Source: a virus (Duplodnaviria; Heunggongvirae; Uroviricota; Caudoviricetes). From it: a stretch of DNA of 17,526 nt. The notes beneath the pieces are model-generated. The model ran no database searches. It was not told the DNA's origin and worked only from the letters and a program-made list of their open reading frames with translations. Made by a program: the position numbers and the translations under genes. Shown one piece after another: positions 1-17,526 of this stretch (positions are counted from its first letter, which is position 1; the number at the start of each line of letters is the position of its first letter). The DNA is taken from IMG/VR virus record IMGVR_UViG_2645727821_000005, positions 1-17,526 of that record; one strand, 5' to 3'.

Positions 1-237
1 GTAACCATAAGGCGGCGTCCACAGAAAGGCCTTCCAGCCCCCGTGCTCAGCCAGAAACGACTCCAGCGCCGTGGCCTCCTCACGGGAGACAGACAGCGTC
101 ACGCTGTACGTTTTCAGGTCAGCGTTCAGCCCGGCAGGCGCACGCTGGGAATAGCCATCACCAAAGCGCACCTCCCTGACGGAAGGAGCCGATGTCACAT
201 CCATCCCGGGTTTCACTTTCCAGCGGAAGGTTTTCAT
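1..237 (-). CDS. M: Tail protein gpM (lambda M-like), partial: 3' end runs off the window edge
   Basis: Minus-strand ATG at 237..235 (MKTFRWKVKPGMDV...) reads in frame to position 1 with no stop. The ATG overlaps the TGA stop of H (ATGA coupling). Position directly downstream of H matches lambda gene order. Confidence 0.8.
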   Translation of the reverse strand, partial: MKTFRWKVKPGMDVTSAPSVREVRFGDGYSQRAPAGLNADLKTYSVTLSVSREEATALESFLAEHGGWKAFLWTPPYGY

Positions 238-2816
238 CGTCCACCTCCGTAGAACAGACCACCATCGCGCATCTGTGCCTGGATTTCATCACGGGCACCC
301 TTGCGGGCCATGTCATACACCGCCTTCATCATCTGTGGACCTGGCAGACCATTCGTACCGTCGTTCTGAATCACCACGTTGTTGTTCTGCTCAAACCTGA
401 TACCCTCTGAACGCCGCATTTGCGCCGGACTTCCGGTGCCACCGACATAACCGCCAGTGGCATAGCCGCGCATCAGCCGGTAGAGATTCCCCACGCCAAT
501 CCGGCTGGTTGCCTCCTTCGTGAAGACAAATTCACCACGGTGAACAATCCCCGCTGGCTCATATTTGCCGCCGGTTCCAGTAAATCCTCCGGTTGCAAAA
601 TGAAATTTCTCCGCAGCGGCCTGAATGGCTGTACCGGTTGAGACGGATGCGCCGCCACCAACAACTCCGCCAATGACGCTGCCGATACTCCCGACAATCC
701 CCACCATTGCCTGCTTAAGCAGAATTTCTGTCATCATGGACAGCACGGAACGGGTGAAGCTGCGCCAGTTCTGCTCACTGCCGGTCAGCATCGCCGCCAT
801 ATTCTGCGCAATACCATCAAAGGTCTGCGTGGCTGCACTTTTAACCTGCGACATACTGTCCGTGGCGCTCTCTTCCCACTCACTCCAGCCGGACTTCAGG
901 CCTGCCATCCAGCTCCCGCGAAGCTGGTCTTCAGCCGCCCAGGTCTTTTTCTGCTCTGACATGACGTTATTCAGCGCCAGCGGATTATCGCCATACTCCT
1001 CCTTCAGGCGCTGTTCCGTGGCTTCCCTCGCTGCCTGCCGGTCAGTCAGCCCCCGGCTTTTCGCATCAATGGCGGCCCGTTTTGCCCGTTGCTGCTGTGC
1101 AAATTTATCCGCCTGCTTCGCCAGTTCGTTCAGCCGTTTCTGGTGTTCAACCTTATCGCCAAGTTCAGCCAGCTGACGTTTGTACTCCAGCGTCTCTTTT
1201 TCATGAGCAAGAAGAGATTTTTCCTCGATACTTAGCGATTTCTTCTGTCCGTCCAGAACGTCAGCAGACAACTTCTCATGCAACACGGCATACTGGCTTT
1301 CGGCTGTCCACAAATCCCGGCGCTGCTGGCTGATTTTTTCATTCGCTCCGCTATGCTGCTCAAGCATTTTTAGTTCAGCTTGTAACGCAAGAAGAGCTGC
1401 ATGTGCTCGATCTTCCTGACGCTCTCCCGCAGACACCTTCACGCCGGACTGTTTCGGCTTTTTCAGCGTCGCTTCATAATCCTTTTTCGCCGCCGCCATC
1501 AGCGTGTTGTAATCCGCCTGCAGAATTTTCCCGTCTTTCAGTGCCTTATTCAGTTCTTCCTGACGGGCGGTATATTTCTCCAGCGGCGTCTGCAGCCGTT
1601 CGTAAGCCTTCTGCGCCTCTTCGGTATATTTCAGCCGTGACGCTTCGGTATCGCTCTGCTGCTGCGCATTTTTGTCCTGTTGACGCTGTTGATCTACCCT
1701 CTTTTGGGCTGCATCCCGCTCCAGGCGTTTTTTTTCACGATCATCCCAGTAACGCGCCCGCGCTTCATCGTTAACGAAATAATCATCCTTGCGCAGATTC
1801 CAGATGTCGTCTGCTTTCTTAAACGCAGCCTCTGCCTTAATCAGCATCTCCTGCGCGGTATCAGGACGACCAATATCCAGCACCTCATCCCACATGGATT
1901 TGAATGCCCGTGCTGTCCTGTCTGCCCAGGTCTCCAGCGTGCCCATGTTCTCTTTCAGGCGGCGGGTCTGGTCATCAAACCCTTTCGTTGCGGCCTCGTT
2001 CGCCGCCTGCAATGCCCCGGCTTCATCGCCGGAACGCTGCAACTGAGCAACATACGCAATCTGCTCCGCCGTCACGTTATGGAACTGGCGCGCCATCGCC
2101 GTCAGCCCCGACGTCGGGTCAGTGGTCAGCTTCCCGAAGGCTTCAGCGACCTTGTCCACCTCCACGCCGGATGCAGAGGAGAAACGCGCCACACTCTGGC
2201 TGATGGACGCAATCTGAGCCTCACCGCTTACCCCCGCCTTAACCAGTGCACTGAGTGACTCGCTGGTCTGGTTAAACGTCAGCCCTGCCGCCTGCCCGGC
2301 TCTGGACAGGACCAGCATACGATCTGCCGTCAGACCCGACTGATTGCCGGAAAGGACCAGCGTTTTGTTGAAATCGGACAGGGTTGAGTTGCCCTGATAC
2401 CAGGCATACGCCAGCGCACCGGTCGCCACCGCCAGCGAGGTTGCCCCGACCATCGGCAGGGTGATCGCACCGGCAAGCCCCCTGAACATGGGGATCATCC
2501 CGCCGAAGGAGTCCTTCACCTGACCACCCTGTTGCAGCAGGATCAGCCACGGACTTTGCCCGCCTGCAAGCTGCGTGGCCACGTCGGTGAACTGCGCAGG
2601 CAGCATACGCATGGCAGCTTTATACTGCCCGACGGAAATCCCCGCTTTCTGTGCAGCCAGTGCCTGTCGGCTCAGCGACTGTTCAACGACTGCCGCTGTT
2701 TTTTTCGCATCACTTTCCGTACCGGAAAAATGACGCCTGACTCTGGCCATCTGCTCGTCAAATCTGGCCGCATCCAGACTCAAATCAACGACCAGATCGC
2801 CTACCGGTTCAGCCAT
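234..2816 (-). CDS. H: Tail tape measure protein gpH
   Basis: 860-aa ORF, ATG at 2816..2814. N-terminus MAEPVGDLVVDLSLDAARFDEQMARV and C-terminal glycine-rich region match lambda gpH as I recall it; long coiled-coil-like central region. Start overlaps the end of the T reading frame. Confidence 0.93.
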   Translation of the reverse strand: MAEPVGDLVVDLSLDAARFDEQMARVRRHFSGTESDAKKTAAVVEQSLSRQALAAQKAGISVGQYKAAMRMLPAQFTDVATQLAGGQSPWLILLQQGGQVKDSFGGMIPMFRGLAGAITLPMVGATSLAVATGALAYAWYQGNSTLSDFNKTLVLSGNQSGLTADRMLVLSRAGQAAGLTFNQTSESLSALVKAGVSGEAQIASISQSVARFSSASGVEVDKVAEAFGKLTTDPTSGLTAMARQFHNVTAEQIAYVAQLQRSGDEAGALQAANEAATKGFDDQTRRLKENMGTLETWADRTARAFKSMWDEVLDIGRPDTAQEMLIKAEAAFKKADDIWNLRKDDYFVNDEARARYWDDREKKRLERDAAQKRVDQQRQQDKNAQQQSDTEASRLKYTEEAQKAYERLQTPLEKYTARQEELNKALKDGKILQADYNTLMAAAKKDYEATLKKPKQSGVKVSAGERQEDRAHAALLALQAELKMLEQHSGANEKISQQRRDLWTAESQYAVLHEKLSADVLDGQKKSLSIEEKSLLAHEKETLEYKRQLAELGDKVEHQKRLNELAKQADKFAQQQRAKRAAIDAKSRGLTDRQAAREATEQRLKEEYGDNPLALNNVMSEQKKTWAAEDQLRGSWMAGLKSGWSEWEESATDSMSQVKSAATQTFDGIAQNMAAMLTGSEQNWRSFTRSVLSMMTEILLKQAMVGIVGSIGSVIGGVVGGGASVSTGTAIQAAAEKFHFATGGFTGTGGKYEPAGIVHRGEFVFTKEATSRIGVGNLYRLMRGYATGGYVGGTGSPAQMRRSEGIRFEQNNNVVIQNDGTNGLPGPQMMKAVYDMARKGARDEIQAQMRDGGLFYGGGR

Positions 2817-3647
2817 ACCGGACTCCTCCTGCGATACCTTCTGATACTGTCATCAGCATTACGTCATCCTCCGTCATGTCCGCCACATCCGGGGAAGCGG
2901 GGATAACTTCATTCCCGTCCGGGCCAAAGCGGACGCCTCCGGCAAGCCCTGCCGCTTTCTGCATCAGCACATCATCTTCAGGCTCTTCGTCAGCCTCGCG
3001 CCGGTTCAGCAGACTGAAATCCAGCGGATGCATATCCGGATCGCTGAAAAACAGGCTGAGCACGGTGTACGTCAGCCCGGAAAAGTGCATATCCAGCAGA
3101 ACATCATGAAAATAATGGGTACTGTAAAAGCGGTGCCAGTCGGCATACTCCGTGGATGACATCCCGGCGAGCATGGCGCGCCAGTCGGGTCGCCCCATCT
3201 CGCGCGCCAGTTTCAGGGCAAAACTCAGCTCACCGTCGAACACTTTCCCGCAGAAACAGGCTCTGCAGGCCCGGCGTCCTCTGCCTGGTCAGGGGCATCA
3301 TTCACCACAAACTCATACATTCCGGACAGCCGGTACACCACGTTTTCAGCATGAGAAATTGCCGCTGTGGGCCAGGTGGTAAGCACTTCCTGCTCAATCT
3401 GTTTAACGGCTTCATTCATGGACGGCTGCTTTGTCTTCTGCGGATGGTTATGCCACAGGGACATCGCCACCAGAAACGCGCCGGTTCTGATGGCGTCTTC
3501 CACAGTAAACTTCCGGTTGCTGTCTGACTCCGCCTGTTCTGCCTGCCGTTTCATCAGGGCGAGATGCTCAATACGCTGCAGGGCTGACAGTTCAGAAAGC
3601 GTGACGGTCACGCCGTTATATTCAAATGATTCGGTTTTCAGGAACAT
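2809..3647 (-). CDS. T: Tail assembly chaperone gpGT, made by a -1 programmed frameshift from G into the T frame
   Basis: The T frame (2809..3243) is open in the -1 frame relative to G and has no independent start with an RBS. Slippery heptamer G GGA AAG lies at minus-strand 3249..3243. T frame ends 8 nt inside the start of H. Confidence 0.85.
3225..3647 (-). CDS. G: Tail assembly chaperone gpG
   Basis: 140-aa ORF (MFLKTESFEYNGVTVTLSEL...), ATG at 3647..3645 preceded by GGAGAG. Same length as lambda G. Ends SAGKCSTVS immediately after the GGGAAAG slippery heptamer. Confidence 0.92.
   Translation of the reverse strand: MFLKTESFEYNGVTVTLSELSALQRIEHLALMKRQAEQAESDSNRKFTVEDAIRTGAFLVAMSLWHNHPQKTKQPSMNEAVKQIEQEVLTTWPTAAISHAENVVYRLSGMYEFVVNDAPDQAEDAGPAEPVSAGKCSTVS
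3243..3249 (-). other. Programmed -1 ribosomal frameshift slippery site GGGAAAG (G to G-T)
   Basis: Plus strand 3243..3249 is ctttccc, reverse complement GGGAAAG, lying across the last codons of G (…A-G-K-C-S-T-V-S-stop). The -1 frame continues into the T ORF. Confidence 0.85.
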
Positions 3648-3662
3648 CGCTGACTCTCCGGA

Positions 3663-4403
3663 TTAGCTGTCGGTGACGTTGATTTCTGCAACCGCAGCAA
3701 ACTCACCATTACCGGATACAACCGGAATGTTGACCCTGCCTGCAGCAACGCCCTTCACGGTGATGGTCATACCACTGACCGACACGGTGGCTTTTGTTTT
3801 ATCCGAAGACACCGCACGGAAGCTCTTGTCGGTTGCGCCTTCCGGCTGGAATGCCACGGTCAGCGTGGTGCTCTGCCCTTTCACCACCGAGGTGCTGGCA
3901 GGCGTCACGGTCATGCCGGTTGCCGCTGTTACCGTGCTGCGATCTTCTGCCATCGACGGACGTCCCACATTGGTGACTTTCACCGTGCGGGTGATCACTT
4001 CCTTCGCCGTCACCGCCTTACCGATACTGCTGACCCAGCCACGGAACACATCGACCGTGCCGTTCGGGAAGCGAATTTTATAGGCACGGGTATCACCTTC
4101 ATTAAACCACGCCAGCAGCGCCTGCTGCCCCTGCTCTCCGGGCATCCACGCCAGCGTGAAACTGGTATCTCCGGCAGATTTCTGCCCCTGCCCGGTCGCA
4201 GTCCAGTCCGCATCTTCATCATCGAGATAGCTGTCGTCATAGGACTCAGCGGTCAGTTCGCCGGGTGTCAGGTCTTTAACTTTTGCCAGACGCGACCAGT
4301 CAACGTCTGAAAGCGGGTTTGCATAAGGGTCGCCGCTCCCGTTATAAACCCACAGTGTGGTCCCGGCCCCTTTCACCGGTGCCAGAGGATTTGGTGTTGG
4401 CAT
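3663..4403 (-). CDS. V: Major tail tube protein gpV
   Basis: ATG at 4403..4401 preceded by GAGGA gives 246 aa ([20 protein letters not shown]...), the lambda V length. The ORF-track start at 4433 is an upstream in-frame extension that overlaps U. C-terminal Ig-like region present. Confidence 0.9.
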
Positions 4404-4410
4404 ATCGTCC

Positions 4411-4806
4411 TCACATTTCATAGGTAATGACATAAGTCAGATCGGCTGAACTCCACAGGCCCGCATCATCGTCGCGCCGGTAGTCATAGCCGCTGGCCAC
4501 CATACTGGTGATCAAATCTGACAGTGCCGGGATATCGCTCATCACCGGATAAATCCGGGACTCCATCCACGCATCCAGCTCTGAATCCGGCACCTGAGCA
4601 GGCAGGAAAACTTCGATATGCAGCTCCGCCTGCCAGGTATCGCTGTCCAGCTCTTCGCCCGTGTATTCAGCGCCAGTGAGATAAACGGCAATTGCCGGAA
4701 AATCCGCCTCATCAAAAACAGCGGGGCGACCATCAAAAAGCGTCGCCCCGGTGTCATGCTTCTCCAGTGCATCCAGTACGGCTGCACGGAGTTCAGTATG
4801 TTTCAT
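4411..4806 (-). CDS. U: Tail tube terminator protein gpU
   Basis: 131 aa ([21 protein letters not shown]...), same length as lambda U. ATG overlaps the Z stop (ATGA). Confidence 0.92.
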
Positions 4807-5378
4807 CGCTTTATCACAATCCTCAGTTGTTGTTTCAGCGCATAGCTCAGTTCTTTTGGCAGACGTTCTCGCCGGATACGGTTAACGTTCTCATCAAAAG
4901 CCTGTTTCAGTGGGACCGCCATCGGAATTTTCACCACCTGAATGGGAAGACGATTACGCTTTTTCCTTCCCTTATCGTCAGTGCCCTTCGCATACCGTGC
5001 TTCTGGCAGACGTTGCATAACATGCCAGCGTCCATTATTTAATCGCTGGATGAATGCCCGCTGATAACGATGCTGACCGGCTTTGAGTATGCTGTTCGGG
5101 CGATGACCAAGCATCCTGATCCCCAGCTTAATAGCAGGGAGATCACCTCGGTTAACGATAATTTTTGCATTCGGATTTCTGACCGTAGCTCGTTTCAGTC
5201 TGGATCGCTCTTTAACCAGTTTTCTCGGCACCCGGGTTTCACGGGCGACCTGAGACGAAGACTGATTAATCGCCGTTGCGGCCACGCGGTTAATGGCCAT
5301 TGCTGACGCACCAGGCACCGCCGTTTTGCTGATACGGCTGAGGTTTTCAACGGCCTGCTCAAGACCTTTTATGGCCAT
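4803..5378 (-). CDS. Z: Tail completion protein gpZ
   Basis: 191 aa (MAIKGLEQAVENLSRISKTAV...), ATG at 5378..5376. Position and length match lambda Z (192 aa as I recall). Confidence 0.88.
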   Translation of the reverse strand: MAIKGLEQAVENLSRISKTAVPGASAMAINRVAATAINQSSSQVARETRVPRKLVKERSRLKRATVRNPNAKIIVNRGDLPAIKLGIRMLGHRPNSILKAGQHRYQRAFIQRLNNGRWHVMQRLPEARYAKGTDDKGRKKRNRLPIQVVKIPMAVPLKQAFDENVNRIRRERLPKELSYALKQQLRIVIKR

Positions 5379-5389
5379 ACACCCCCCTT

Positions 5390-5743
5390 TCAGCGACGAC
5401 GGTTAACGGCAGGCGGCACACCACGCCCAAGCCAGAGATGACAACTTCCGCCATCATCCGGCGAAATCCGGTCTATCCAGAAGTTTTCCTCACCGATGGT
5501 CAGCGTGTCGCCGCGCCGCAGCTGCCGCACATCATCAGTCCGGACAAACAGGGACGGGCTGGAGCCTTCAACGCGCACGCCCTGTCCGGCATAGCTGATA
5601 TTTTCAGGGTCATCAAAAACACCACGTATCACCGCACCGGACTGCTCACCGGATGTCATGGTGGCTGACGTTCCCATGTACCCGCGTATCGTTTCATCGG
5701 CGCGGGCAATGGCAGCATCGAACAGGTTATCGAAATCAGCCAC
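5390..5743 (-). CDS. FII: Head-tail joining protein gpFII
   Basis: 117 aa (MADFDNLFDAAIARADETIRGYMG...). GTG start at 5743..5741 preceded by GGGAGG with 4-nt spacer. Confidence 0.9.
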   Translation of the reverse strand: MADFDNLFDAAIARADETIRGYMGTSATMTSGEQSGAVIRGVFDDPENISYAGQGVRVEGSSPSLFVRTDDVRQLRRGDTLTIGEENFWIDRISPDDGGSCHLWLGRGVPPAVNRRR

Positions 5744-5754
5744 AGCGCCTCCCG

Positions 5755-6153
5755 TTATTGCATTCTGGCCAGGCCACGTTCTGTCATTTCGGCTGCCACA
5801 CCGGCAGAGACACGGAACGCCGTTCCCGGCAGCACAAATGCCACAGGTTCATCCCGCGTGGCGTGAAGTGCATCGGTATGCAGCGTCACCAGTGCCACTA
5901 CCGTGACCAGTTCAGCCGTATCATGAATCACGGTATCCGGCTGCGCTGATACCACCTCATTTTCATGCCCGGTCAGCGCATTTTCCGGGCTGACAGATGT
6001 GTCCTGACCGGCAGCGTCATCCGTGTCATCAAGCTCCTCTTCCAGCTCTGCCACACGGAGTGCCAGTTCTTCTTTCGTCCCCGTCAGGCTGACATCACGG
6101 TTCAGTTGCTCACCCAGCACCTGAAGACGGGCAATCAGTTCATCTTTCGTCAT
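5755..6153 (-). CDS. FI: DNA packaging / head assembly protein gpFI
   Basis: ATG at 6153..6151 preceded by GGAGGAG gives 132 aa (MTKDELIARLQVLGEQLNRDV...), the lambda FI length. The ORF-track start at 6192 is an upstream extension. Confidence 0.9.
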   Translation of the reverse strand: MTKDELIARLQVLGEQLNRDVSLTGTKEELALRVAELEEELDDTDDAAGQDTSVSPENALTGHENEVVSAQPDTVIHDTAELVTVVALVTLHTDALHATRDEPVAFVLPGTAFRVSAGVAAEMTERGLARMQ

Positions 6154-6194
6154 GGACTCCTCCACAGAGAGAAAATGGCCCCGAAGGGCCATGA

Positions 6195-7220
6195 TTACGC
6201 CAGTTGTACAGACACGAATTCATCAGGGTCAGCCAGCAGCATCAGCGGTGCTGACTGAATCATAGTGAACTCACGCGCCGGATCGCCGGTGGTCACCCAG
6301 TTTTTCGGGTAACGGGCAGAGGCGTTAATGCCTTCGCGCTGTGCGTCCGCATCCTGAATGCAGCCATAGGTGCGCAGACCGCGTGCCTGAGTGTTCCCCA
6401 GCACCATCGTGTTGTCCGGCAGGAAGTTCTTTTTGACGCCGTTTTCCACGTACTGTCCGGAATAAACGACGATGGCCACATCGCCATACATTCCCTTATA
6501 AGACACCGCTTTGCCCAGGTCTTTCACCGCTGTCTCCAGCTCGGAATGAGAGCCGCGACGGGTATCCAGCTTATCCTTGACGGCCTTGAAGGAACGGAAC
6601 AGCGCCCAGCCTTTCGGATCAAACACGATGATATTCACCACACCGCTGGCGTTCAGCGCGTAGGCTTCGATATCGTCGGTCGGGTCATACGTGGACTTGT
6701 CACGCTGGCTCCACTGCGTGCCGCCGGACTGCGTGATGTTATTCGCCGCACTGCGGCCCATATCCACTTCAACCGGATCGAAGGCTTCACCGGTCATGGT
6801 GTATTTGCCCTTAAGCACGGCAGAAACGGCCTGCATCTCTTCGACCTGAGCAATGGCCAGCTCTTCGTCACGCATGTTCTGCATGATGATGCGACGGCGG
6901 CGGTAAGCCGGGTCCGCCAGATTCTGTGGATCTTCATCCGGCAGGCGACGCAGGGTCATCTGCGGATTCACCTCATGCTTCGGCTTGACATATCCCGGCG
7001 TAAATTCAGAGGTGGAGCCGCCACGGGAACGGATAACCTCACCGGAAACAATCGGCGAAACGTACAGCGCCATGTTTACCAGTCCCGGAATTTGTGAGAG
7101 ATAGACTTTCTCCGTGGTGAAGGGATAGCTCTCACGGAAAAAGAGACGCAGAAACAGCGGATCAAACTTAAATTTCTTCTCATTTGCCGCCAGCAGCTGG
7201 GCAGTTGTGTACATCGACAT
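6195..7220 (-). CDS. E: Major capsid protein gpE
   Basis: ATG at 7220..7218 gives 341 aa (MSMYTTAQLLAANEKKFKFDPLFLRLFF...), the lambda E length. The ORF-track start at 7247 is an upstream extension into the D-E intergenic hairpin. Confidence 0.93.
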   Translation of the reverse strand: MSMYTTAQLLAANEKKFKFDPLFLRLFFRESYPFTTEKVYLSQIPGLVNMALYVSPIVSGEVIRSRGGSTSEFTPGYVKPKHEVNPQMTLRRLPDEDPQNLADPAYRRRRIIMQNMRDEELAIAQVEEMQAVSAVLKGKYTMTGEAFDPVEVDMGRSAANNITQSGGTQWSQRDKSTYDPTDDIEAYALNASGVVNIIVFDPKGWALFRSFKAVKDKLDTRRGSHSELETAVKDLGKAVSYKGMYGDVAIVVYSGQYVENGVKKNFLPDNTMVLGNTQARGLRTYGCIQDADAQREGINASARYPKNWVTTGDPAREFTMIQSAPLMLLADPDEFVSVQLA

Positions 7221-7230
7221 AAAAAAATTC

Positions 7231-7257
7231 CGTAAAAAAAGCCGCACAGGCGGCCTT
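7231..7257 (-). terminator. Putative intrinsic terminator/attenuator hairpin between D and E
   Basis: Minus strand reads GCCGCCTGTGCGGC (5-bp GC-rich stem, 4-nt loop) followed by TTTTTTT, between the D stop and the E start. Confidence 0.5.
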
Positions 7258-7275
7258 TAGTGATGAAGGGTAAAG

Positions 7276-7608
7276 TTAAACGATGCTGATTGCCGTTCCG
7301 GCAAACGCGGTCCGTTTTTTCGTCTCGTCGCTGGCAGCATCCGGCCAGAGCACATCCTCATAACGGAACGTGCCGGACTTGTAGAACGTCAGCGTGGTGC
7401 TGGTCTGGTCAGCATCAACCGCAAGAATGCCAACGGCAGCACCGTCGGTGGTGCCATCCCACGCAACCAGCTTACGGGTGGAGGTGTCCGGCATCAGCGG
7501 GGTCATTGCAGGCGTTTTCGCACTCAATCCGCCGGGCGCGGTTGCGGTATGAGCCGGGTCACTGTTGCCCAGCGGCTGGTAATGGGTAAAGGTTTCTTTG
7601 CTCGTCAT
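7276..7608 (-). CDS. D: Head decoration protein gpD
   Basis: ATG at 7608..7606 preceded by AAGGGA gives 110 aa ([27 protein letters not shown]...), the lambda D length. Confidence 0.92.
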
Positions 7609-7617
7609 AAACATCCC

Positions 7618-8223
7618 TTACACTGGTGTGTTCAGCAAATCGTTAACGGCATCAGATGCCGGGTTACCTGCAGCCAGCGGTGCCGGTGCACCCTGCATCA
7701 GACGATCCAGCGCAGTATCACTGCGCGCCTGTGCACTCTGTGGTGCTGCGGCCAGAATGCGGCGGGCCGTTTCCACGGTCATACCGGGGGTTTCAGCCAG
7801 CACGCGGGCCTGTTCTTCGCGTCCGTGAGCCTCCTCACAGTTGAGGATCCCCATAATGCGGCTGTTTTCTGCCGCAACTGCTGCGGTGATCTGCGCGTTC
7901 ACGTCCGGCTGCGCCGCGCTGGCGTTTTCGCCCTCCGTCTCTGGCATCACGTCAGTAACGTCAGCCTGCGAAGCAGTGGCTGAAACAGTTGTTGATTGGG
8001 TCTCTTTGGTCATTCGCCCTCCTGAGAGACGGGATTTACGTGCATCCAGTGCATCACGCATGACGGTGATCGCATCGGTGCTGTTAACAAGTTCATCAGC
8101 CAGTCCGGCATCAATGGCCTCCTGACCGCTGTACACTGCAGCCTCGGTATCCAGCACAGCCTGCACGGACAGGCCGGTATATGCCGACACCTTCTGCGCA
8201 AACATCCGGCGGGTTGCATCCAT
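7618..8223 (-). CDS. Nu3: Scaffolding protein gpNu3, nested in frame in the 3' third of C
   Basis: Internal in-frame ATG at 8223..8221 (MDATRRMFAQKVSAYTGL...) gives 201 aa sharing the C stop, as in lambda. Called from the lambda precedent and the presence of the ATG, not from an independent signal. Confidence 0.6.
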   Translation of the reverse strand: MDATRRMFAQKVSAYTGLSVQAVLDTEAAVYSGQEAIDAGLADELVNSTDAITVMRDALDARKSRLSGGRMTKETQSTTVSATASQADVTDVMPETEGENASAAQPDVNAQITAAVAAENSRIMGILNCEEAHGREEQARVLAETPGMTVETARRILAAAPQSAQARSDTALDRLMQGAPAPLAAGNPASDAVNDLLNTPV

Positions 8224-8917
8224 CCGGGACTGCAGTGTCTCCCGGACGTCATCCGGAAGATGGCTGTAGGGGTTGCCATCCACCTTATGGCTGCCGCTGT
8301 AAATCAGCGTGATTTCCATGCCCTGTTTCTCCAGCGCAGCGCCGTAATTACTGTGAGCCATCATGACGCCGATGGAGCCTGTCCGGGCGGTCTGTGTGAC
8401 CAGACGCCGGGAGGCGGCACTGGCAAGCAGCTGACCTGCACTGCAGTTCATGTCGTTGGCCAGCGCCCATACCGGTTTTATGTCACGCACACGGGCGATG
8501 ATGTCAGCGCAGTCAAATGCCCCCGCCACCATCCCGCCGGGCGTGTCCATATCGAGCAGAATGCCGTCCACCATCGGATCGCTGGCAGCCTGTTGCAGAC
8601 GGGCGATAATGCCGTTGTAACCGGTCATCCCCGAATACGGCTGCAGCGCCCGCGTCCGGCTGACCAGCGTGCCGGACACCGGCAGCACGGCGATGCCGTT
8701 CATGACCTGATAACTGCGGGCCTGTCGTGGTCCGTCATCATCAACGGATAACGCCAGCGTCGCGGGTGCCTCTCCGGCAGTCAGGCTGTCACCGGACACC
8801 GCATCCGTCAGGCGGCTGATCCCAAGCTGGCCTGCAAGCGCACAAAAGAAAACCCGCGCATAGGCGGGTTCAAGCATCAGCGGCTCATTAAAGGCCATGC
8901 TGGCAATATGCGGGAGA

Positions 8918-8937
<20 letters not shown>
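7618..8937 (-). CDS. C: Head maturation protease / scaffold gpC (ClpP/S49-like)
   Basis: GTG at 8937..8935 preceded by GGAGGAGAAGA gives 439 aa (VTAELRNLPHIASMAFNEPLML...), the lambda C length. Start overlaps the 3' end of B by 20 nt as in lambda. The ORF-track start at 9072 is an upstream extension. Confidence 0.9.
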
Positions 8938-12618
<3,681 letters not shown>

Positions 12619-12644
<26 letters not shown>

Positions 12645-13164
12645 TCAGCAACCCCGGTATCAGTTCATCCAGCGCGGCTGCTTTGTTCATGGCTTTGATG
12701 ATATCCCGTTTCAGGAAATCAACATGTCGGTTTTCCAGTTCCGGAAAACGCCGCTGCACCGACAGGGGGATCCCGTCGAGAATACTGGCAATTTCACCTG
12801 CGATCCGCGACAGCACGAAAGTACAGAATGCGGTTTCCACCACTTCAGCGGAGTCTCTGGCATTTTTCAGCTCCTGTGCGTCGGCCTGCGCACGCGTAAG
12901 TCGATGGCGTTCGTACTCAATAGTCCCTGGCTGGAGATCTGTCTCGCTGGCCTGCCGCAGTTCTTCAACTTCCCGGCGCAGCTTTTCGTTCTCAATTTCA
13001 GCATCCCTTTCGGCATACCATTTTATGACGGCGGCAGAGTCATAAAGCACCTCATTACCCTTGCCACCGCCTCGCAGAACGGGCATTCCCTGTTCCTGCC
13101 AGTTCTGAATGGTACGGATACTCACACCGAAAATGTCAGCCAGCTGCTTTTTGTTGACTTCCAT
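12619..13164 (-). CDS. Nu1: Terminase small subunit gpNu1
   Basis: 181 aa (MEVNKKQLADIFGVSIRTIQNWQEQGMPVLRGGGKGNEVLYD...), ATG at 13164..13162. N-terminal winged-HTH region. Sits about 190 bp downstream of cosN as in lambda. Confidence 0.95.
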
Positions 13165-13400
13165 TGTTCATTCCACGGCCAAAAACAGAGAAAGGAAACG
13201 ACAGAGGCCCAAAAGCTCGTTTTCAGCACCTGTCGTTTCCTTTCTTTTCAGGGGGTATTTTAAATAAAAACATTAAGTTACAACGAAGAAGAACGGAAAT
13301 GCCTTAAACCGGAAAATTTTCATAAATAGCGAAAACCCGCGAGGTCGCCGCCCCGTAGCCTGCCGGATCGCCGGAAAGGACCCGCAGGCGTTCTGGTTTA
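13165..13400 (-). other. cos region (cosB between cosN and Nu1, cosN, and the cosQ side)
   Basis: Reverse complement of 13261..13353 reads GGGCGGCGACCTCGCGGGTTTTCGCTATTTATGAAAATTTTCCGGTTTAAGG..., the lambda left end as I recall it. Plus strand 13354..13385 (cgtagcctgccggatcgccggaaaggacccgc) resembles the lambda right end. Confidence 0.85.
13342..13353. other. cosN 12-nt cohesive-end sequence (GGGCGGCGACCT on the minus strand)
   Basis: Plus strand 13342..13353 is aggtcgccgccc, the exact reverse complement of the lambda 12-nt cohesive end. Confidence 0.85.
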
Positions 13401-13435
13401 TTCTCAATGAATTCAATGTCTGACAGACCTGCGTC

Positions 13436-13453
13436 GTGCGACCACGGTCGCAC
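13436..13453. repeat. 18-bp palindrome GTGCGACCACGGTCGCAC, copy 1 of 3
   Basis: 8-bp inverted arms GTGCGACC / GGTCGCAC around a 2-bp centre. Identical 18-mer recurs at 15122..15139 and 15342..15359. Confidence 0.9.
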
Positions 13454-13477
13454 AGCAATGAATCAACATCCTGCATG

Positions 13478-13546
13478 CTCGTGCAGAGGAGTTCCCCGTC
13501 AGGCTACGGTCATGGTTAATGCGGGAATACAGCGACGATACAGCGC
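13478..13546. repeat. Direct repeat, copy 1 (~69 bp; partner at 15263..15331)
   Basis: ctcgtgcagaggagttccccgtcaggctacggtcatggttaatgcgggaatacagcgacgatacagcgc aligns to 15263..15331 in the same orientation with 5 mismatches (about 93% identity) at an offset of 1785 bp. Confidence 0.9.
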
Positions 13547-13662
13547 ATGATGTGTCAGGCTTGAATACATTTATCCGTTAAAAGGGATATCAGTTAAGTT
13601 ATCCCGTGTAGGGTATAAGCCATTATCAAAGCCACTCAGTAGCGAATGGCTTTTGTAATGGA

Positions 13663-14112
13663 CTATTTAATTAGTGATGCTGCGTATTCGATTAGATATA
13701 ACTTAGGTGCCAACCAGATTTTTAACCATGTCATATTGGTTACTACAGCAATAATAAAACTTACCCACAGAACAAAAACTGCTGCTAATGGTAAGATAAG
13801 AAAACTAATCTCACCGTTACTTTCCCAAATCATAGTCGGTTTGTATTTAGGCTTCCCTTTTTCCCATGACCATCCTTCATTATCGAACTTACCAATTTCA
13901 ACTTTTTGGTACTGTTTCTTCATAAACCAAATAACCAGCGGGATTGTTGAAATGGCTATTAATGTTTTAATCAGGCTATCAACCATATTCCATACCAGCA
14001 ACTGATGAACAACATCCGGAATCTGAGCCTGACTGAATGCAATGGCGGAATCAATTCCATCGCTGGCCTTCTTCAATAAATCAACAAGAATTTTATTTGC
14101 TTCTTCTTGCAT
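13663..14112 (-). CDS. Hypothetical small membrane protein (149 aa; at least two predicted transmembrane segments), AT-rich accessory gene
   Basis: ATG at 14112..14110 with a weak AGGA-type RBS (MQEEANKILVDLLKKASDGIDSAIAF...). Hydrophobic stretches LIKTLIAISTIPLVIWFM and ISFLILPLAAVFVLWVSFIIAVV. Lysine-rich, low GC compared with the flanking phage genes. No family recognised. The ORF-track start at 14157 is an alternative. Confidence 0.7.
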   Translation of the reverse strand: MQEEANKILVDLLKKASDGIDSAIAFSQAQIPDVVHQLLVWNMVDSLIKTLIAISTIPLVIWFMKKQYQKVEIGKFDNEGWSWEKGKPKYKPTMIWESNGEISFLILPLAAVFVLWVSFIIAVVTNMTWLKIWLAPKLYLIEYAASLIK

Positions 14113-14237
14113 GTTTATATCCTGTAAGTTGTAAGCCTGTTCGAGAAAAATAAACAACTACGAGAGACAGAAAAAAAATATCTCAGGCTCTCTTTCTATA
14201 AGCTTTTAGTTGAGGATGTTCTGCAAAACAAAACTGG

Positions 14238-15098
14238 TTAGTTATGTAACTGCTTCCGGAATACAACAGCCGACGAGCTACAACGTAAAATTCGTTTGAT
14301 TGTGGCAGTTGAGGAAACATACTTGCATTTCTCAACATCATCAATAATGACCACATCCGGTACAGGAATGACGCGGGTATGCAATGTTTTTGCACTAATA
14401 ACATCACAGCCATTCAGTGGTCGAATATCTGCATCTTCAGGCACTACCAGAAGCACACGTTTTTCCGGTGCAGAAAAGCCAGCAGCAAGAGTGCGTGACA
14501 ATAAAGTCATTCCGCTGCGTGGCTTCATACAAATTTCAGAAATATGATTCTTTTCGTCCAAATGATGCTGGACATCATTTTTATCATCACTCAACAACTC
14601 TGCTGTTAATACAATCCCTGCTGTCTCAGATTTCCAGGAAATGCTGATATCCTGATCATCTGCATCAACATCATATTTCATCGAGTAAGGACTAAAGCTA
14701 CGTCCAACGAACGCATCATTTACCAGTACACGCCCACCCTGTCTGACCTGAAAGTCAACGCGCCCTGAAAGCTGATTTGCTGTTACAAGCAATGCCTTTT
14801 TTCTTTTTGTTTTATTGCTCATTGCCACCAACTGTTCAGCCATCTCTCTTGTCACACTACCAGAAACTCTTTCTTGAATTTTCACAGAAAATTTTCTGGA
14901 TGTAGTAGCATCGACATTAAAAAATCTGGATGTCATCAGGCAGTTATTAACAATTGGCATCAGCTCACTTACGATTGTAAAAAATTCCCGGTAAAGCTCA
15001 TTTTGCTTTTCAACACACAGCTTTCCACAATCGTCCAGCTTACGCTCAAGAGCACTTAACCTTTCCATTATTGAATTAATTTTTTGCAACTCTTTCAT
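14238..15098 (-). CDS. Hypothetical protein (286 aa), AT-rich accessory gene with a coiled-coil-like N-terminus; function unknown
   Basis: ATG at 15098..15096 preceded by a strong AGGAGG RBS at 5-6 nt spacing (MKELQKINSIMERLSALERKLDDCGKL...). The 373-aa ORF in the track extends upstream through the repeat and palindrome region and is probably not translated. Low GC. No family recognised. Confidence 0.75.
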   Translation of the reverse strand: MKELQKINSIMERLSALERKLDDCGKLCVEKQNELYREFFTIVSELMPIVNNCLMTSRFFNVDATTSRKFSVKIQERVSGSVTREMAEQLVAMSNKTKRKKALLVTANQLSGRVDFQVRQGGRVLVNDAFVGRSFSPYSMKYDVDADDQDISISWKSETAGIVLTAELLSDDKNDVQHHLDEKNHISEICMKPRSGMTLLSRTLAAGFSAPEKRVLLVVPEDADIRPLNGCDVISAKTLHTRVIPVPDVVIIDDVEKCKYVSSTATIKRILRCSSSAVVFRKQLHN

Positions 15099-15120
15099 CA
15101 AAACCTCCTGACAAAAATAC

Positions 15121-15140
15121 CGTGCGACCACGGTCGCACG
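15121..15140. repeat. 18-bp palindrome, copy 2 of 3 (9-bp arms here), just upstream of the 286-aa gene RBS
   Basis: cGTGCGACCACGGTCGCACg. On the minus strand the hairpin is followed by GGTATTTTTGT and then AGGAGG and the ATG, so it is terminator- or attenuator-like. Confidence 0.85.
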
Positions 15141-15262
15141 CTCCTGAATACATGCCCTGTTTCTTCCACCCTCGCACAGGACTGGCGAGCATGAGGGACA
15201 AACCCGCGAATCATTAGCGCGGTAAAAACCCGGTGTGCATCGTTTTTGATTATTTCCGCACA

Positions 15263-15331
15263 CTCGCGCAGAGGAGTTCCCCGTCGGGCTACGGTCATGG
15301 TTAATGCGGAAATACGGCGACGATGCAGCGC
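15263..15331. repeat. Direct repeat, copy 2 (~69 bp; partner at 13478..13546)
   Basis: ctcgcgcagaggagttccccgtcgggctacggtcatggttaatgcggaaatacggcgacgatgcagcgc; see copy 1. Confidence 0.9.
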
Positions 15332-15340
15332 GGTATTTAA

Positions 15341-15360
15341 TGTGCGACCACGGTCGCACA
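15341..15360. repeat. 18-bp palindrome, copy 3 of 3 (9-bp arms), 20 nt downstream of the DUF4406-like gene stop
   Basis: tGTGCGACCACGGTCGCACa. On the minus strand it follows the TAA of the upstream gene and is followed by the A/U-rich ATTAAATAC. Confidence 0.85.
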
Positions 15361-15378
15361 CGAGAAACAAAGAGATTT

Positions 15379-15690
15379 TTATGCTACAGAGGAACAAGCT
15401 GGCGGGTAATTCAGCGTAGTGAATACCGGCATCTCCATCTTGTATGCGTAATGATACTCAGCAGTTGCTCCAGCAGACGCTTTCCAGCCAGGAAGCATCA
15501 AAATAGCATCCGCACAACGAAGCATTGCAAAGCAAATATCCATGTATTCACGTTGTGTCAGACCATTAGGTAAAGTGGCTGGATTCAAGACAGAGTGACC
15601 ATGTCGTGACAAACGATCTGCCTCTTTATTAAAGGCGTCACGATTAAAGTTCTCATATCCCGTCATTGGCCCGGCAATATAAATTTTCAT
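15379..15690 (-). CDS. Small accessory protein, DUF4406-like / nucleoside 2-deoxyribosyltransferase-like (103 aa)
   Basis: ATG at 15690..15688 (MKIYIAGPMTGYENFNRDAFNKEADRLSRHGHSVLNPATLP...). The N-terminal MKIYIAGPMTG...NP motif is what I recall as characteristic of DUF4406. Sits directly downstream of Rz. GC is visibly lower than the head genes. Family call is from memory. Confidence 0.75.
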   Translation of the reverse strand: MKIYIAGPMTGYENFNRDAFNKEADRLSRHGHSVLNPATLPNGLTQREYMDICFAMLRCADAILMLPGWKASAGATAEYHYAYKMEMPVFTTLNYPPACSSVA

Positions 15691-15731
15691 TCACTATCCA
15701 ACAAATTGAGTTCGTTTTTGATACAGAGGGA

Positions 15732-16199
15732 TTAATTCAGGCATTGCGTATTGATGTATTCCTGAAGCGTTCTCAGTGCTGTTTGGTCGCGGATAATTCC
15801 GTCCCGGATACCGAGAACGTTTCGTCCAGCAACTGAAGAGAGTTCGACGGTGGCATCATTGCCCATGCCGGAGGCGCTGGAGGTTTTGGCTGAGGCTGGC
15901 ACAAGGCATTTTCCTTTGACGAGCACCCGACCACCATTATCAAGCTTACGCCGAAGAGCATCATTTTCAGCTTTCGCATTGGCTAACTCCTTCGTGTATT
16001 TAGCATCGAGTGCATCAGCAGCACGCTGGCGCTGCTGCATGTCAGCGATGGTGGCGGTCGCCTGCTTCAGCTCACTGACTTTTTTATCACGCTGTTCTTT
16101 GTAGGCGATGGCGTTATCACGGTAATGATTAACAGCCCACGACAGGCAGACGATGATGCAGATAACCAGAGCGGAGATAATCGCGGTTAACCGACTCAT
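15732..16199 (-). CDS. Rz: Spanin inner-membrane subunit Rz (i-spanin)
   Basis: ATG at 16199..16197 ([40 protein letters not shown]...) gives an N-terminal transmembrane helix, then a coiled-coil periplasmic domain; N-terminus is like lambda Rz. The ORF-track start at 16235 is a GTG extension. Confidence 0.85.
15773..15979 (-). CDS. Rz1: Spanin outer-membrane lipoprotein subunit Rz1 (o-spanin), embedded in the +1 frame of Rz
   Basis: 68 aa ([44 protein letters not shown]...). ATG at 15979..15977, lipobox-like VVGC and a proline-rich segment, entirely inside Rz in a different frame as in lambda Rz/Rz1. Confidence 0.8.
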
Positions 16200-16287
16200 G
16201 ACATCAACACCCCAACGGCTAGAAACCACGGCCACGCATCGTTGCCATTAAATGCGAGCAACGCTGCCATGAAAAAGCAAATCATGC

Positions 16288-16785
16288 TCATTGCTGCCCC
16301 CACAAACAGACTTCTCGCTCAATATCACGACGGGTCATCAGCCCTTTCCATTGCTTACCGCCAGCGTATGTCCAGCGACGCAACTGGTCACATGCGCCCT
16401 TGATATCGCCCTGGTTTATTTTGCGAAGAAGCGTCGATGTTCTGAAATTACCAGCACCCACGTTGTAAACGAATGAGTAAAGAGCGCCGCGCGTTGTTTC
16501 CGGTATATCGACTTTGATGTACGGGTTAATTTGTCTGGCGACAGTGGCAAGGTCTTTATTCAGGAGGGCTTTGCATTCTGCTTCGGTATACGTTTTACCG
16601 AGCATGATGTCTTTTCCGGTGTGTCCGTGACATACAGTCCATACGCCAACGATATCTTTGTATGGTATGTAGCTGACACCTTCCAGGCCATCGTCACCAC
16701 CTGGGCCAGTGATTAACACTGATGCTATAGCAATTGCTCCGCCACCAATAGCAGCAGCAACGGCTTTTCGTAATGATGGAGGCAT
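16288..16785 (-). CDS. R: SAR endolysin (T4-lysozyme-family muramidase with N-terminal signal-anchor-release domain), phage 21 R-like
   Basis: 165 aa ([59 protein letters not shown]...). Gly/Ala-rich weakly hydrophobic N-terminus typical of SAR endolysins, followed by a lysozyme catalytic region. ATG overlaps the S stop (TAATG). Confidence 0.9.
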
Positions 16786-17000
16786 TATTCACCTCTCGCA
16801 GCCTTGCGCTTATCTTCTTTAATCTTGAAATAAAGGTTTGTCAGGTACGTCAGCAGGCCAAATACCAGGCTACCCAGCACACCTATTGCTGCCCACTGTG
16901 AGGGCGTGACTTTATCGAGCAACTGTAAAAACCAATACCCGGCACTACCTGCTGAGGTGCCATAGGCGACACCCGTTGTTAACTTATCCATGGATTTCAT
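16785..17000 (-). CDS. S: Pinholin (phage 21 S-like holin/antiholin with dual-start motif)
   Basis: 71 aa ([71 protein letters not shown]). Two transmembrane segments. MKSM dual start at Met1 and Met4. RBS GAGGTGG. Immediately upstream of the SAR endolysin. Confidence 0.9.
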
Positions 17001-17031
17001 AACCCCACCTCGCAGATGCGGGTGCTGTGTA

Positions 17032-17060
17032 ATGGAAATAAAAAGGCCACCTGCGTGGCC
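17032..17060 (-). terminator. Putative intrinsic terminator between the methyltransferase gene and S
   Basis: Minus strand reads GGCCACGCAGGTGGCC (6-bp GC stem, 4-nt loop) followed by TTTTTATTT, in the 66-bp gap between the methyltransferase stop (17067) and the S start (17000). Confidence 0.6.
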
Positions 17061-17066
17061 ACCAGA

Positions 17067-17526
17067 TTATTTCCCCACCAGCTCGTTTATCTCTTTCACT
17101 GTCTGGTTAAACCGCCCTGACTCAAGATCAACACCTAAGGCCCGACGCCCCAGCGCCATTGCTGCTTTTATTGTGGAACCGGATCCCATAAAAAAATCAG
17201 CAACCAGATCACCTGGTCGACTACTGGCATTGATTATTTGCCTGAGCATATCCGCCGGTTTCTCACACGGATGTTTCCCCGGGTAGAACTGAACGGGTTT
17301 ATGCATCCAGACATCGGTATAAGGCACGGAGACTGATACGGAGAAATAGCGCCGGAGAGATTTAAACTCATCCAGCAATTCAGAATATTTGCGATTCAGT
17401 GAATCATAAGATGCCACCAGCTGGTGGTGTGGTTGTTCCAGTTGTTGTTCCTGAAACTTCTCTGCCGCTATACGGGAAAACAGTGCCTGTAACTTCCGAT
17501 AGTCAGCCTCATTCGGCAACTGCCAC
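17067..17526 (-). CDS. DNA methyltransferase (N6-adenine/N4-cytosine family, beta-class motif order), 3' portion only; 5' end lies outside the window
   Basis: C-terminal ...HKPVQFYPGKHPCEKPADMLRQIINASSRPGDLVADFFMGSGSTIKAAMALGRRALGVDLE... contains the FxGSGST AdoMet-binding motif I near the C-terminus. The DPPY-type catalytic motif expected upstream is not in the window, so the Met at 17519 is probably not the true start. Confidence 0.8.
   Translation of the reverse strand, partial: WQLPNEADYRKLQALFSRIAAEKFQEQQLEQPHHQLVASYDSLNRKYSELLDEFKSLRRYFSVSVSVPYTDVWMHKPVQFYPGKHPCEKPADMLRQIINASSRPGDLVADFFMGSGSTIKAAMALGRRALGVDLESGRFNQTVKEINELVGK

Follow-up and report, generated by a model that had tools for sequence, protein, structure and literature searches.

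By sequence comparison, the 17,526-nucleotide window (the whole stretch of DNA that we analysed; positions 1 to 17,526 of IMG/VR record IMGVR_UViG_2645727821_000005) is an ordinary lambda-family prophage whose lysis genes are of the phage 21/DLP12 type and not lambda's own. Positions 15732-17000 (-), where (-) denotes the minus strand, very probably make up a lambdoid prophage's lysis cassette, part of its late genes, put together from modules common in the lambdoid gene pool. The span carries S, R, Rz and an embedded Rz1, all intact, and its nearest neighbours come from assemblies of Escherichia coli and other enterobacteria. It also contains a fifth open reading frame (ORF), of 31 codons, that was absent from the first-pass annotation of this DNA. 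Pairwise comparison indicates a mosaic finer than one junction, with at least six segments, each of which has a different nearest relative.

That annotation had described the structural backbone as lambda-like, and blastn bears this out: the window aligned to lambda (NC_001416) at 93.7% identity over 6-4946 and at 97.2% over 5122-13384, with cos conserved. The lambda-type virion and packaging module (6-13341 (-)) consists of cosB, Nu1, A, W, B, C/Nu3, D, E, FI, FII, Z, U, V, G, T and H. All 15 structural and packaging genes are intact and collinear with lambda from Nu1 to H, and their products are 90-99.6% identical to the lambda proteins (Nu1 98.3%, A 98.8%), except for Z at 64%. Compared with phage 21, the head and packaging proteins are 52-67% identical (Nu1 only 53%), and the tail gene DNA is 95% identical to both lambda and 21. 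Lambda comparison placed the cos core, cosN with the 30 nt to its right including cosQ, at 13342-13384 (-). The 12-nt cosN, GGGCGGCGACCT (13342-13353), is identical to that of lambda; cosQ, GGGTCCT, lies at 13377-13383, and cosB, cosN and cosQ are all intact. Homology to lambda stops at 13384, the outer edge of cosQ. Because lambda and phage 21 also part from each other there, this break is a usual module boundary and not peculiar to the element. A recombination junction had been proposed between the lysis module and cos; the break at the cosQ edge matches that proposal, but it is not the single junction of the region.

S (16785-17000 (-); Pfam PF04971) is a predicted class II pinholin with a dual start. 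It matched PF04971, 'Bacteriophage P21 holin S', with 121 bits against a cut-off of 26 over residues 5-67, and also PHROG 9876 and PHROG 20 'holin'. The protein is identical to phage 21 S at 61 of 71 residues, with all ten substitutions conservative, and to its closest relative, phage 434B S, at 71 of 71; the lysis region of 434B derives from the DLP12 prophage of E. coli K-12. At the DNA level, S showed 73-76% identity to S21 versus 98-99% to phage Ayreon (MF807953). The protein has the class II layout of about 70 residues, two transmembrane domains (TMDs), a Gly/Ala/Ser-rich TMD1 resembling a signal-anchor-release (SAR) domain, and a basic C-terminal tail. TMD1 is weakly and TMD2 strongly hydrophobic, so that only residues 31-60 pass the Kyte-Doolittle threshold while residues 8-27 fall below it, a profile shared with S21. 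The MKSM dual start noted earlier (M1-K2-S3-M4) is identical to that annotated in phage 21 (OL657228) for the S21-71 antiholin and the S21-68 pinholin, and predicts a 71-residue antiholin from the ATG at 17000 and a 68-residue pinholin from Met4, the ATG at 16991 (-). S21-68 is a pinholin and S21-71 its antiholin (PMC9239132, PMC7312051). Small (<2 nm) depolarising holes impassable to proteins have been established for S21-68 in these studies; as S is 86% identical to S21 and fully (100%) identical to the 434B/DLP12 protein, it would be expected to make holes of this kind. A hairpin over the S Shine-Dalgarno sequence, comparable to lambda sdi, was predicted for phage 21 as well as for the window, with z scores of -1.5 and -1.6 that are not significant against shuffled sequences.

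R (16288-16785 (-)), whose ATG and the stop codon of S have one base in common (TAATG), encodes a predicted SAR endolysin of 165 residues with a T4-lysozyme/GH24 fold (PF00959, 154.7 bits). Its full-length matches were PDB 3HDE (R21; 159/165 identical) and 4ZPU (RrrD; 161/165), at E values of about 1e-109, and its DNA is 89-98% identical to phage 21. The catalytic triad E35-x8-D44-x5-T50 is present. Residues 4-31 form a hydrophobic stretch that is 57% Gly/Ala/Ser/Thr, as in a SAR N-terminus, and residues 1-28 are identical to those of R21, which has been solved in membrane-bound and released forms (3HDE, 3HDF). R21 belongs to the SAR endolysins and is set free when the membrane depolarises (PMC9239132, PMC7312051), and 96% identity to it suggests that R would be exported via Sec, tethered to the membrane and freed on depolarisation. 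By contrast, lambda encodes a three-TMD holin (S105/S107) and a soluble transglycosylase R, both dissimilar to the S and R of the window. Blastn gave no lambda match over 16208-17526, and homology to lambda S and R was rejected: global protein identities of about 20-22% with negative alignment scores amount to noise, and there is no DNA homology. The identities of S (86%) and R (96%) to their phage 21 counterparts thus uphold the earlier assignment of the lysis proteins to the phage 21 type.

Rz (15732-16199 (-); PF03245, 96.8 bits; PHROG 13) encodes an i-spanin of 155 residues, with an N-terminal TMD (residues 1-27) and, after it, a coiled-coil domain in the periplasm; the start codon of the gene is the ATG at 16199 and not the GTG at 16235 given in the mechanical ORF list. 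Rz1 (15773-15979 (-); PF06085, 73.9 bits), an o-spanin lipoprotein of 68 residues with the lipobox VVGC at Cys19, lies entirely inside Rz in the +1 frame, the arrangement of two-component embedded spanins. Periplasmic cysteines are present at C98 and C153 of Rz and at C27 of Rz1. Rz is itself mosaic: its 5' part (about 15952-16207) is shared with lambda and 21 at 86% identity, and its 3' part is a different allele for which blastn found neither lambda nor 21 DNA homology. Rz1 is not the lambda or 21 allele, being 39-41% identical to both; its identity is 97% to HK620, 96% to SPN3UB and 94% to ST104. On these alignments, the Rz 3' part and Rz1 are the HK620/ST104-type allele, not the 21 type. 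The embedded spanins of HK620/ST104/SPN9CC-type phages likewise have an Rz1 of 68 residues, 94-97% identical to that of the window, and their Rz C-terminal domain is the same allele, the window's Rz being near-identical there to SPN3UB Rz by inspection. These phages differ from the window in their holins and endolysins, which are of other types, and in their P22-like virion genes.

Several known phages share parts of this arrangement. Phage 21 has the same gene order, MKSM motif, S and R lengths (71 and 165 residues) and TAATG overlap, and about 80% identity over the N-terminal ~85 residues of Rz. Unlike the window, it has an S whose DNA is only about 75% identical, another allele of the Rz C-terminal half and of Rz1 (Rz1 41%), R and Rz genes that overlap by ATGA where the window places the 31-codon ORF, and tRNA genes with pR' upstream of S where the window has a methylase gene; we found no tRNA genes upstream of S in the window. 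The DLP12 genes essD and rrrD, as carried in 434B (OL657227), encode S and R identical at 71/71 and 161/165 residues, with 96.7% identity across the S-R DNA. In 434B, the lysis region was replaced by DLP12 sequence (PMC9119081), and the cassette adjoins virion genes whose annotation calls them lambda-similar, so that a module replacement of the same kind is documented. However, homology between DLP12/434B and the window starts only about 17 nt upstream of S, with the nmpC porin gene upstream and lambda-type Rz/Rz1 and bor downstream in 434B. Ayreon, compared over its late region only, has the order Q ... DNA methylase, terminator, S, R, Rz/Rz1 and is 97-100% identical in DNA over the stretch that runs from methylase to R, and likewise over Rz/Rz1, but it lacks an 88-nt insert carrying the small ORF (its R and Rz overlap directly), the DUF4406 gene and the two-gene cargo described below.

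Upstream of S, the window ends within an N6/N4 DNA methyltransferase gene, whose 3' part (17067-17526 (-); PF01555; PADLOC MTase_II) is 98-100% identical to Ayreon and whose product has 350 residues in related contigs (L107-L114). Between the methylase stop codon and the S ribosome-binding site lies an intrinsic-terminator-like hairpin, GGCCACGCAGGTGGCC followed by TTTTTATTT (17045-17060 (-); fold z-score -3.0), and the homologous Ayreon site is annotated as a terminator. On the cos side, a cargo ('moron') region (13385-15731 (-)) stands in place of the lambda bor-to-cos segment, which in lambda holds bor and lambdap78/79 between Rz and cos. This region contains the DUF4406 gene (15379-15690) and two orphan genes (14238-15098 and 13663-14157) flanked by a direct repeat (13469-13547 and 15195-15331). 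An 18-bp palindrome occurs there in three copies, only one of which is terminator-like; it was dismissed as a lambda or 21 feature, being absent from both with 4 mismatches allowed. The 286-aa and 164-aa cargo proteins were likewise dropped as a candidate defence system, as neither PADLOC nor Pfam gave a match.

As the first-pass annotation had anticipated, pairwise nucleotide identity to lambda or phage 21 in sliding-window comparison was not smooth across the window, and the profile was segmented against lambda, 21, Ayreon, Emek and an E. coli prophage. No two of these five parts, namely S, R, the small ORF, the 3' part of Rz together with Rz1, and the cargo, share their closest relative, and the window is therefore not the product of just one lambda x 21 exchange. 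A single recent cross of a lambda-like phage with phage 21, broken only once, between Rz and cos, would be in keeping with the identity of R DNA to 21 and of the tail genes to both phages. It is nevertheless contradicted by the segment-wise identities, and we consider it very improbable: S DNA is far closer to Ayreon than to 21, the Rz 3' part and Rz1 lack homology to either proposed parent, the small-ORF insert occurs at high DNA identity almost only in P22-like Salmonella phages and E. coli phage 2B8, and a methylase gene occupies the position of the phage 21 tRNA genes and pR'. An assembly chimera joining reads from two prophages of one genome would be conceivable, since places resembling this region number 2 per E. 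coli genome at the median and 13 at most, and short reads could be mis-joined there. Yet the whole arrangement, 7.2 kb across the junctions, recurs at 99.95-99.96% identity in two independent assemblies (L110 and L112), and a closely related arrangement is present in the closed chromosome NZ_CP148453.1 and in phage genomes, leaving a chimera with hardly any likelihood.

Assembly from shared modules is the reading that we prefer, and parts of the window do recur in other combinations. A block of methylase, S, R, small ORF and Rz 5' part, 99.4% identical, adjoins a lambda-type module in two contigs (L108, L111) and a different head module in others (L107, L109, L113, L114), the latter with a DUF1441 small terminase of 163-179 aa, a large terminase of 699-700 aa and a portal of 502-526 aa. 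At least 14 sequenced phages cover at least 80% of the window, and no phage record spans it smoothly; the best, YDC107_1, reaches 88% coverage in 7 pieces. The region 13354-17526 was found in one piece in none of the complete E. coli genomes, the best having 96.6% identity over 94% in four pieces. Such a lysis cassette on a lambda backbone is already known from many GenBank records and has also been made in the laboratory (434B, lambda x DLP12 recombinants). Recombinants between lambda and DLP12 form readily, with junctions clustered beside cos (PMC3945230).

A decaying cryptic prophage, like DLP12 in K-12, whose lysis genes are relics or have been domesticated by the host, for example for vesicles or biofilm, would be consistent with the 100% (S) and 98% (R) identity to 434B alleles taken from defective DLP12 (PMC9119081) and with a published role of the DLP12 lysis genes in the making of outer-membrane vesicles (PMC7918800). 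The absence of the immunity and replication genes from the window, which also lacks the Q region, would fit this reading too. We nonetheless judge decay unlikely: every late gene in the 17.5 kb is intact, as are cosB, cosN and cosQ; the DLP12-derived R and Rz are functional in lambda (PMC3945230); and nearly identical late regions occur in plaque-forming phages, among them Ayreon, PhiR11_1 and Kati.

The only unusual item in the region is a tiny, conserved, uncharacterised gene between R and Rz. This 31-codon hypothetical ORF (16196-16291 (-)), lying outside the classical cassette, has an ATG that overlaps the R stop codon (CAATGA) and a TGA that overlaps the Rz ATG (TCATGA). It occupies the slot between a SAR lysozyme gene and Rz in 90 IMG/VR contigs, and the 4-nt overlap with Rz was kept in all 80 with enough downstream sequence. 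Its pN/pS is 0.23 in frame, compared with 1.5 and 6.4 when the two alternative frames are read. The ORF is absent from lambda, 21, 434B and Ayreon. The 88-nt insert that carries it showed 95-97% DNA identity in 18 records, and in the P22-like Salmonella phages PS34, BTP1 and vB_SemP_Emek this degree of identity extends over the R 3' part, the ORF and the start of Rz. Those phages, by contrast, have a 67-aa holin starting MYRM, a diverged remainder of Rz and Rz1, and a podovirus virion. In SPN3UB, UPF_BP1 and Klebsiella phage RCIP0114, homologues with 43-48% identity stand at this position beside differing endolysins, which are of the SAR type by annotation in RCIP0114 and by N-terminal inspection in SPN3UB and UPF_BP1. 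The small ORF co-occurs with at least five holin families and stays attached to Rz where an HNH endonuclease gene has been inserted upstream.

Emek annotates the small ORF as hypothetical 'orf30', and databases name it only 'hypothetical' or 'uncharacterised'. In the 20 complete E. coli genomes that match best, PGAP gave it no annotation, and our literature search returned no description of it. It matched no Pfam or NCBIfam model; its only PHROG match was a weak one to phrog_14810, of unknown function (E = 0.0034), and an exhaustive HMMER search recovered only 2 representatives. We rejected a lipoprotein, as the product lacks a signal peptide and Cys5 is not preceded by a lipobox. The ORF is probably a real expressed gene. 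A lysis-related function is a more tentative suggestion: the product, translationally coupled to R and Rz, could be a very small peptide that forms a hairpin in the membrane and adjusts either how the SAR endolysin is retained or released, or how the spanins work. If so, it may add a fifth or sixth member, so far undescribed, to the lysis cassettes with SAR endolysins. The classical lysis model leaves this ORF unaccounted for.

Near-identity to experimentally studied proteins allows a course of lysis to be proposed. Q-antiterminated late transcription would pass the terminator after the methylase gene, and both S starts would be translated, the 71-aa form with its extra Lys2 acting as antiholin and the 68-aa form as pinholin. 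R, exported by Sec, would stay inactive and tethered to the inner membrane by its weakly hydrophobic SAR N-terminus until the pinholin triggers, nanometre-scale holes form and the membrane potential collapses. The SAR domain would then exit the bilayer, R would refold into an active muramidase and degrade the cell wall, and Rz in the inner membrane with the outer-membrane lipoprotein Rz1 would act last by disrupting the outer membrane. Homologous recombination probably brought the cassette itself together with the lambda-type module of head, tail and cos, the exchanges falling in conserved linkers: the cos/cosQ edge, the Rz 5' part and the S ribosome-binding site.

S21/EssD and R21/RrrD are the paradigm pinholin and SAR endolysin. 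The lysis finding is a correct reading of textbook lambdoid modular evolution and as such matters little; its main use is for annotation, and as a clean example of recombination boundaries at conserved linkers. The small ORF, a widespread and mostly unannotated peptide gene under purifying selection, could matter more than the cassette. If it acts in lysis control, it would be a new component in a lambdoid pathway thought to be fully enumerated.

The window is a lambdoid late region with its genes on the minus strand. Its S gene (16785-17000, minus strand) encodes a 71-residue product that begins MKSM, as the first-pass annotation had noted, and scores 121 bits against the Pfam model PF04971 (Bacteriophage P21 holin S), for which the cut-off is 26. 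This product is identical to phage 21 S at 61 of 71 residues in a global alignment and to phage 434B S at 71/71, and its sub-threshold TMD1 and strongly hydrophobic TMD2 follow the S21 pattern. R (16288-16785, minus strand) encodes a 165-residue protein with a PF00959 match, whose full-length matches (E about 1e-109) are the solved structures 3HDE (phage 21 R) and 4ZPU (DLP12 RrrD). It shares 159/165 residues with phage 21 R by global alignment and 161/165 with 434B R, carries the E35-x8-D44-x5-T50 triad, has the same residues 1-28 as R21, and is 57% Gly/Ala/Ser/Thr across its N-terminal hydrophobic stretch. According to its genome announcement, 434B had its lysis region replaced with sequence from DLP12 of E. 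coli K-12 (PMC9119081). We also considered kinship with lambda S and R and rejected it, as global alignment gave about 20% identity and negative scores; by blastn, the window has no match to lambda over S and R. The earlier proposal that S and R are of the phage 21 type, unlike those of lambda, therefore holds.

Our evidence on mechanism consists of sequence identity, domains, overlaps between genes and conserved motifs, and the steps of lysis are taken from studied homologues (PMC9239132, PMC7312051). By analogy, S68 would build up in the membrane and then trigger to form small holes, and S71, bearing the extra Lys2, would delay triggering. Depolarization would release the SAR domain of R, which would refold into an active muramidase, and the Rz-Rz1 spanin complex would complete lysis. 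A hairpin predicted over the S Shine-Dalgarno sequence in both the window and phage 21 was no better than shuffled controls (z about -1.5).

Rz (15732-16199, minus strand) and the Rz1 embedded in it (15773-15979, minus strand) match PF03245 and PF06085, respectively, and the Rz1 lipobox is VVGC19. The Rz1 protein is 39-41% identical to its lambda and phage 21 counterparts and 97% identical to that of HK620. The 3' part of Rz together with Rz1 (15732-15951) is of Ayreon/HK620/ST104 type, with no lambda or phage 21 match; the 5' part of Rz (15952-16207), which is 86% identical to lambda and 86% to phage 21, is a conserved linker. The spanins are not of 21 type, and the description of the lysis module as phage-21-type applies to S and R but not to the Rz 3' part and Rz1.

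To map breakpoints, we used a 100-nt sliding comparison against five references together with HSP tables. A recombination junction between the lysis module and cos had been proposed, and the comparison supports mosaicism but not a single lambda x 21 junction: the mosaic is multi-segment, with at least six segments that differ in closest relative. Positions 6-13384 are closest to lambda-type sequence, and the cargo region (13385-15731, minus strand) has no lambda or phage 21 homology except for a repeated element of 65-140 nt. Positions 16201-16290, within a small ORF between R and Rz, show 95-97% DNA identity to 18 phage records; most of these are from P22-like phages of Salmonella, and E. coli phage 2B8 is also among them. 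R DNA is 89-98% identical to phage 21, S DNA is only 73-76% identical to phage 21 and 98-99% to Ayreon, and S-R together are 96.7% identical to 434B/DLP12. Going upstream, phage 21 and 434B homology stops about 10-17 nt ahead of the S start codon, and Ayreon-type methylase sequence goes on at 98-100%; an intrinsic-terminator-like hairpin is predicted at 17045-17060 (minus strand), and a DNA methyltransferase gene (PF01555) is represented by its 3' end at 17067-17526 (minus strand).

The packaging, head and tail genes and cos are lambda-like, as had been suggested, with blastn identities to lambda of 93.7% over 6-4946 and 97.2% over 5122-13384. cosQ, cosN and cosB lie at about 13200-13384, with cosN (GGGCGGCGACCT) at 13342-13353, and are followed on the minus strand by Nu1, A, W, B, C/Nu3, D, E, FI, FII, Z, U, V, G, T and H. 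The Nu1, A, W, B, C, D, E, FI and FII proteins are 90-99.6% identical to those of lambda and 52-67% to those of phage 21 (FI has no reported phage 21 match), and U, V, G, T and H are about 91-100% and about 94-98% identical, respectively. Z (4803-5378) is only 64% identical to lambda Z (63% to phage 21) because of a 175-nt patch (4947-5121) without lambda or phage 21 homology, a small intragenic mosaic in a tail-gene block that is otherwise 94-97% identical. The 30 nt to the right of cosN, including cosQ GGGTCCT, are conserved across the window, lambda and phage 21, and all three diverge directly past this stretch. No tRNA genes were found in the window.

Within the cargo region, genes for proteins of 164 (13663-14157) and 286 residues (14238-15098), both on the minus strand, occupy the stretch that separates the lysis genes from cos and that in lambda holds bor; this position makes them candidate lysogenic-conversion or defence genes. 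Neither protein has a Pfam, NCBIfam or PADLOC match, and the two match nothing but PHROG families 3054 and 2571, both of unknown function. These orphan genes lie between the copies of a direct repeat (13469-13547 and 15195-15331; 74-nt core, 91% identical). Lambda and phage 21 each have one copy of the element, at 46868-46974 (upstream of bor) and 41542-41680, respectively. The arrangement looks like the product of either cassette insertion by recombination at a conserved linker between genes or duplication of a moron promoter region. An 18-bp palindrome, GTGCGACCACGGTCGCAC, occurs in three exact same-orientation copies (chance expectation 0.01), beside cos (13436-13453), just upstream of the 286-residue ORF (15122-15139) and just downstream of a DUF4406 gene (15342-15359), and is absent from lambda, phage 21 and Ayreon even allowing four mismatches. 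It may serve as an operator or recombination site or form an RNA hairpin; the middle copy looks like a terminator, as it alone is followed by a T-run. The DUF4406 protein (103 residues; 15379-15690, minus strand), encoded directly downstream of Rz, resembles nucleoside 2-deoxyribosyltransferases, and a 'YdfR family protein', its putative counterpart, is listed at that point in one related E. coli record that also contains the region.

The combination of these lysis genes with a lambda backbone is not new. Coverage of the window reaches 80% or more in 14 phage records, among them PhiR11_1, mEp332, Kati and Turner, which have lambda-type H...Nu1 genes with a 71-residue S and a 165-residue R. The exact R protein occurs on 22 contigs, and in all eight of those examined the methylase-S-R-88-nt gap-Rz block is constant while the structural modules vary. 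In contigs L108, L110, L111 and L112 the block is followed by lambda-type Nu1, A, W and B; in L107, L109, L113 and L114, which share window positions 16083-17526 at 99.4% identity, it leads into a non-lambda module for terminase, portal and head. The junction with this latter module, which has a DUF1441 small terminase, a 699-700-residue large terminase and a ClpP-capsid fusion, falls within Rz at about window position 16083. The window matches L110 (GCA_019328105.1) at 99.96% and L112 at 99.95% over the full 7.2-kb overlap; it therefore comes from such a prophage, and misassembly does not account for the arrangement. The same cargo-Rz-R region is found in several 'plasmid' records of complete E. 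coli assemblies (about 36-68 kb, most 46-51 kb), probably lambda-like phage genomes that were assembled as circular replicons of their own. Lambda can take up DLP12 DNA across R-Rz-cos-nu1 by Red-mediated recombination, giving viable recombinants with junctions concentrated beside cos (PMC3945230); 434B is a spontaneous case of DLP12 lysis-region acquisition (PMC9119081), and a recent paper on a lambdoid genome treats a five-gene lysis module of 21-like type as a matter of routine annotation (PMC12315714). The first-pass observation and its interpretation are correct, and the feature is ordinary and already known.

R overlaps Rz through ATGA in lambda, phage 21, 434B and Ayreon, whereas in the window 88 nt lie between them. 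This insert bears a 31-codon ORF (16196-16291, minus strand) whose ATG overlaps the R stop codon and whose TGA overlaps the Rz start codon. Among phage records, 18 carry the ORF at 90% identity or more, and three of them (Emek, as 'orf30', P6 and vB_ST415_1NRH) have a 'hypothetical protein' at its position. Homologues with 43-48% identity are found at the equivalent position in Salmonella phages SPN3UB and UPF_BP1 and Klebsiella phage RCIP0114, each following a different endolysin with a SAR-like N-terminus (annotated as SAR in RCIP0114, called by visual inspection of the N-terminus in SPN3UB and UPF_BP1), and share the motif NG(N/H)D(G/A)W(G/P)W. Of 93 matches in a degenerate-motif scan of IMG/VR, 90 were the small ORF. 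Rz starts 4 nt before its end in 80/80 contigs with enough downstream sequence, and an E-x8-D-x5-T lysozyme, most commonly with a Gly/Ala-rich N-terminus, lies upstream in 70/75 with enough upstream sequence; in the remaining five, an HNH endonuclease gene separates R from the ORF (four) or R is cut by the contig end (one). Contigs L013, L029, L046 and L095 carry an HNH/AP2-type homing-endonuclease-like gene between the endolysin gene and the ORF, which is still joined to Rz by the 4-nt overlap. The accompanying holins belong to at least five families.

The exact peptide occurs on 561 contigs, and hundreds of others carry close variants (Salmonella, E. coli, Klebsiella, Shigella), with database names that are all 'hypothetical' or 'uncharacterised'; we found no published description in the literature searched. 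The insert is present in 60 of 5,426 complete E. coli genomes, and PGAP places no gene over it in the 20 best-matching complete records listed. A single-sequence AlphaFold model predicts helices at residues 2-15 and 20-30 with an NGND turn between them (mean pLDDT 80). Across 29 distinct 96-nt alleles, with motif codons fixed by the search left out, pN/pS was 0.23 in frame and 1.5 and 6.4 in the other two frames, which contain stop codons in 29/29 and 14/29 alleles. The pN/pS of 0.23 shows that the small ORF is under purifying selection. We regard it as a real gene, and its position and coupling lead us to hypothesize a role in lysis.
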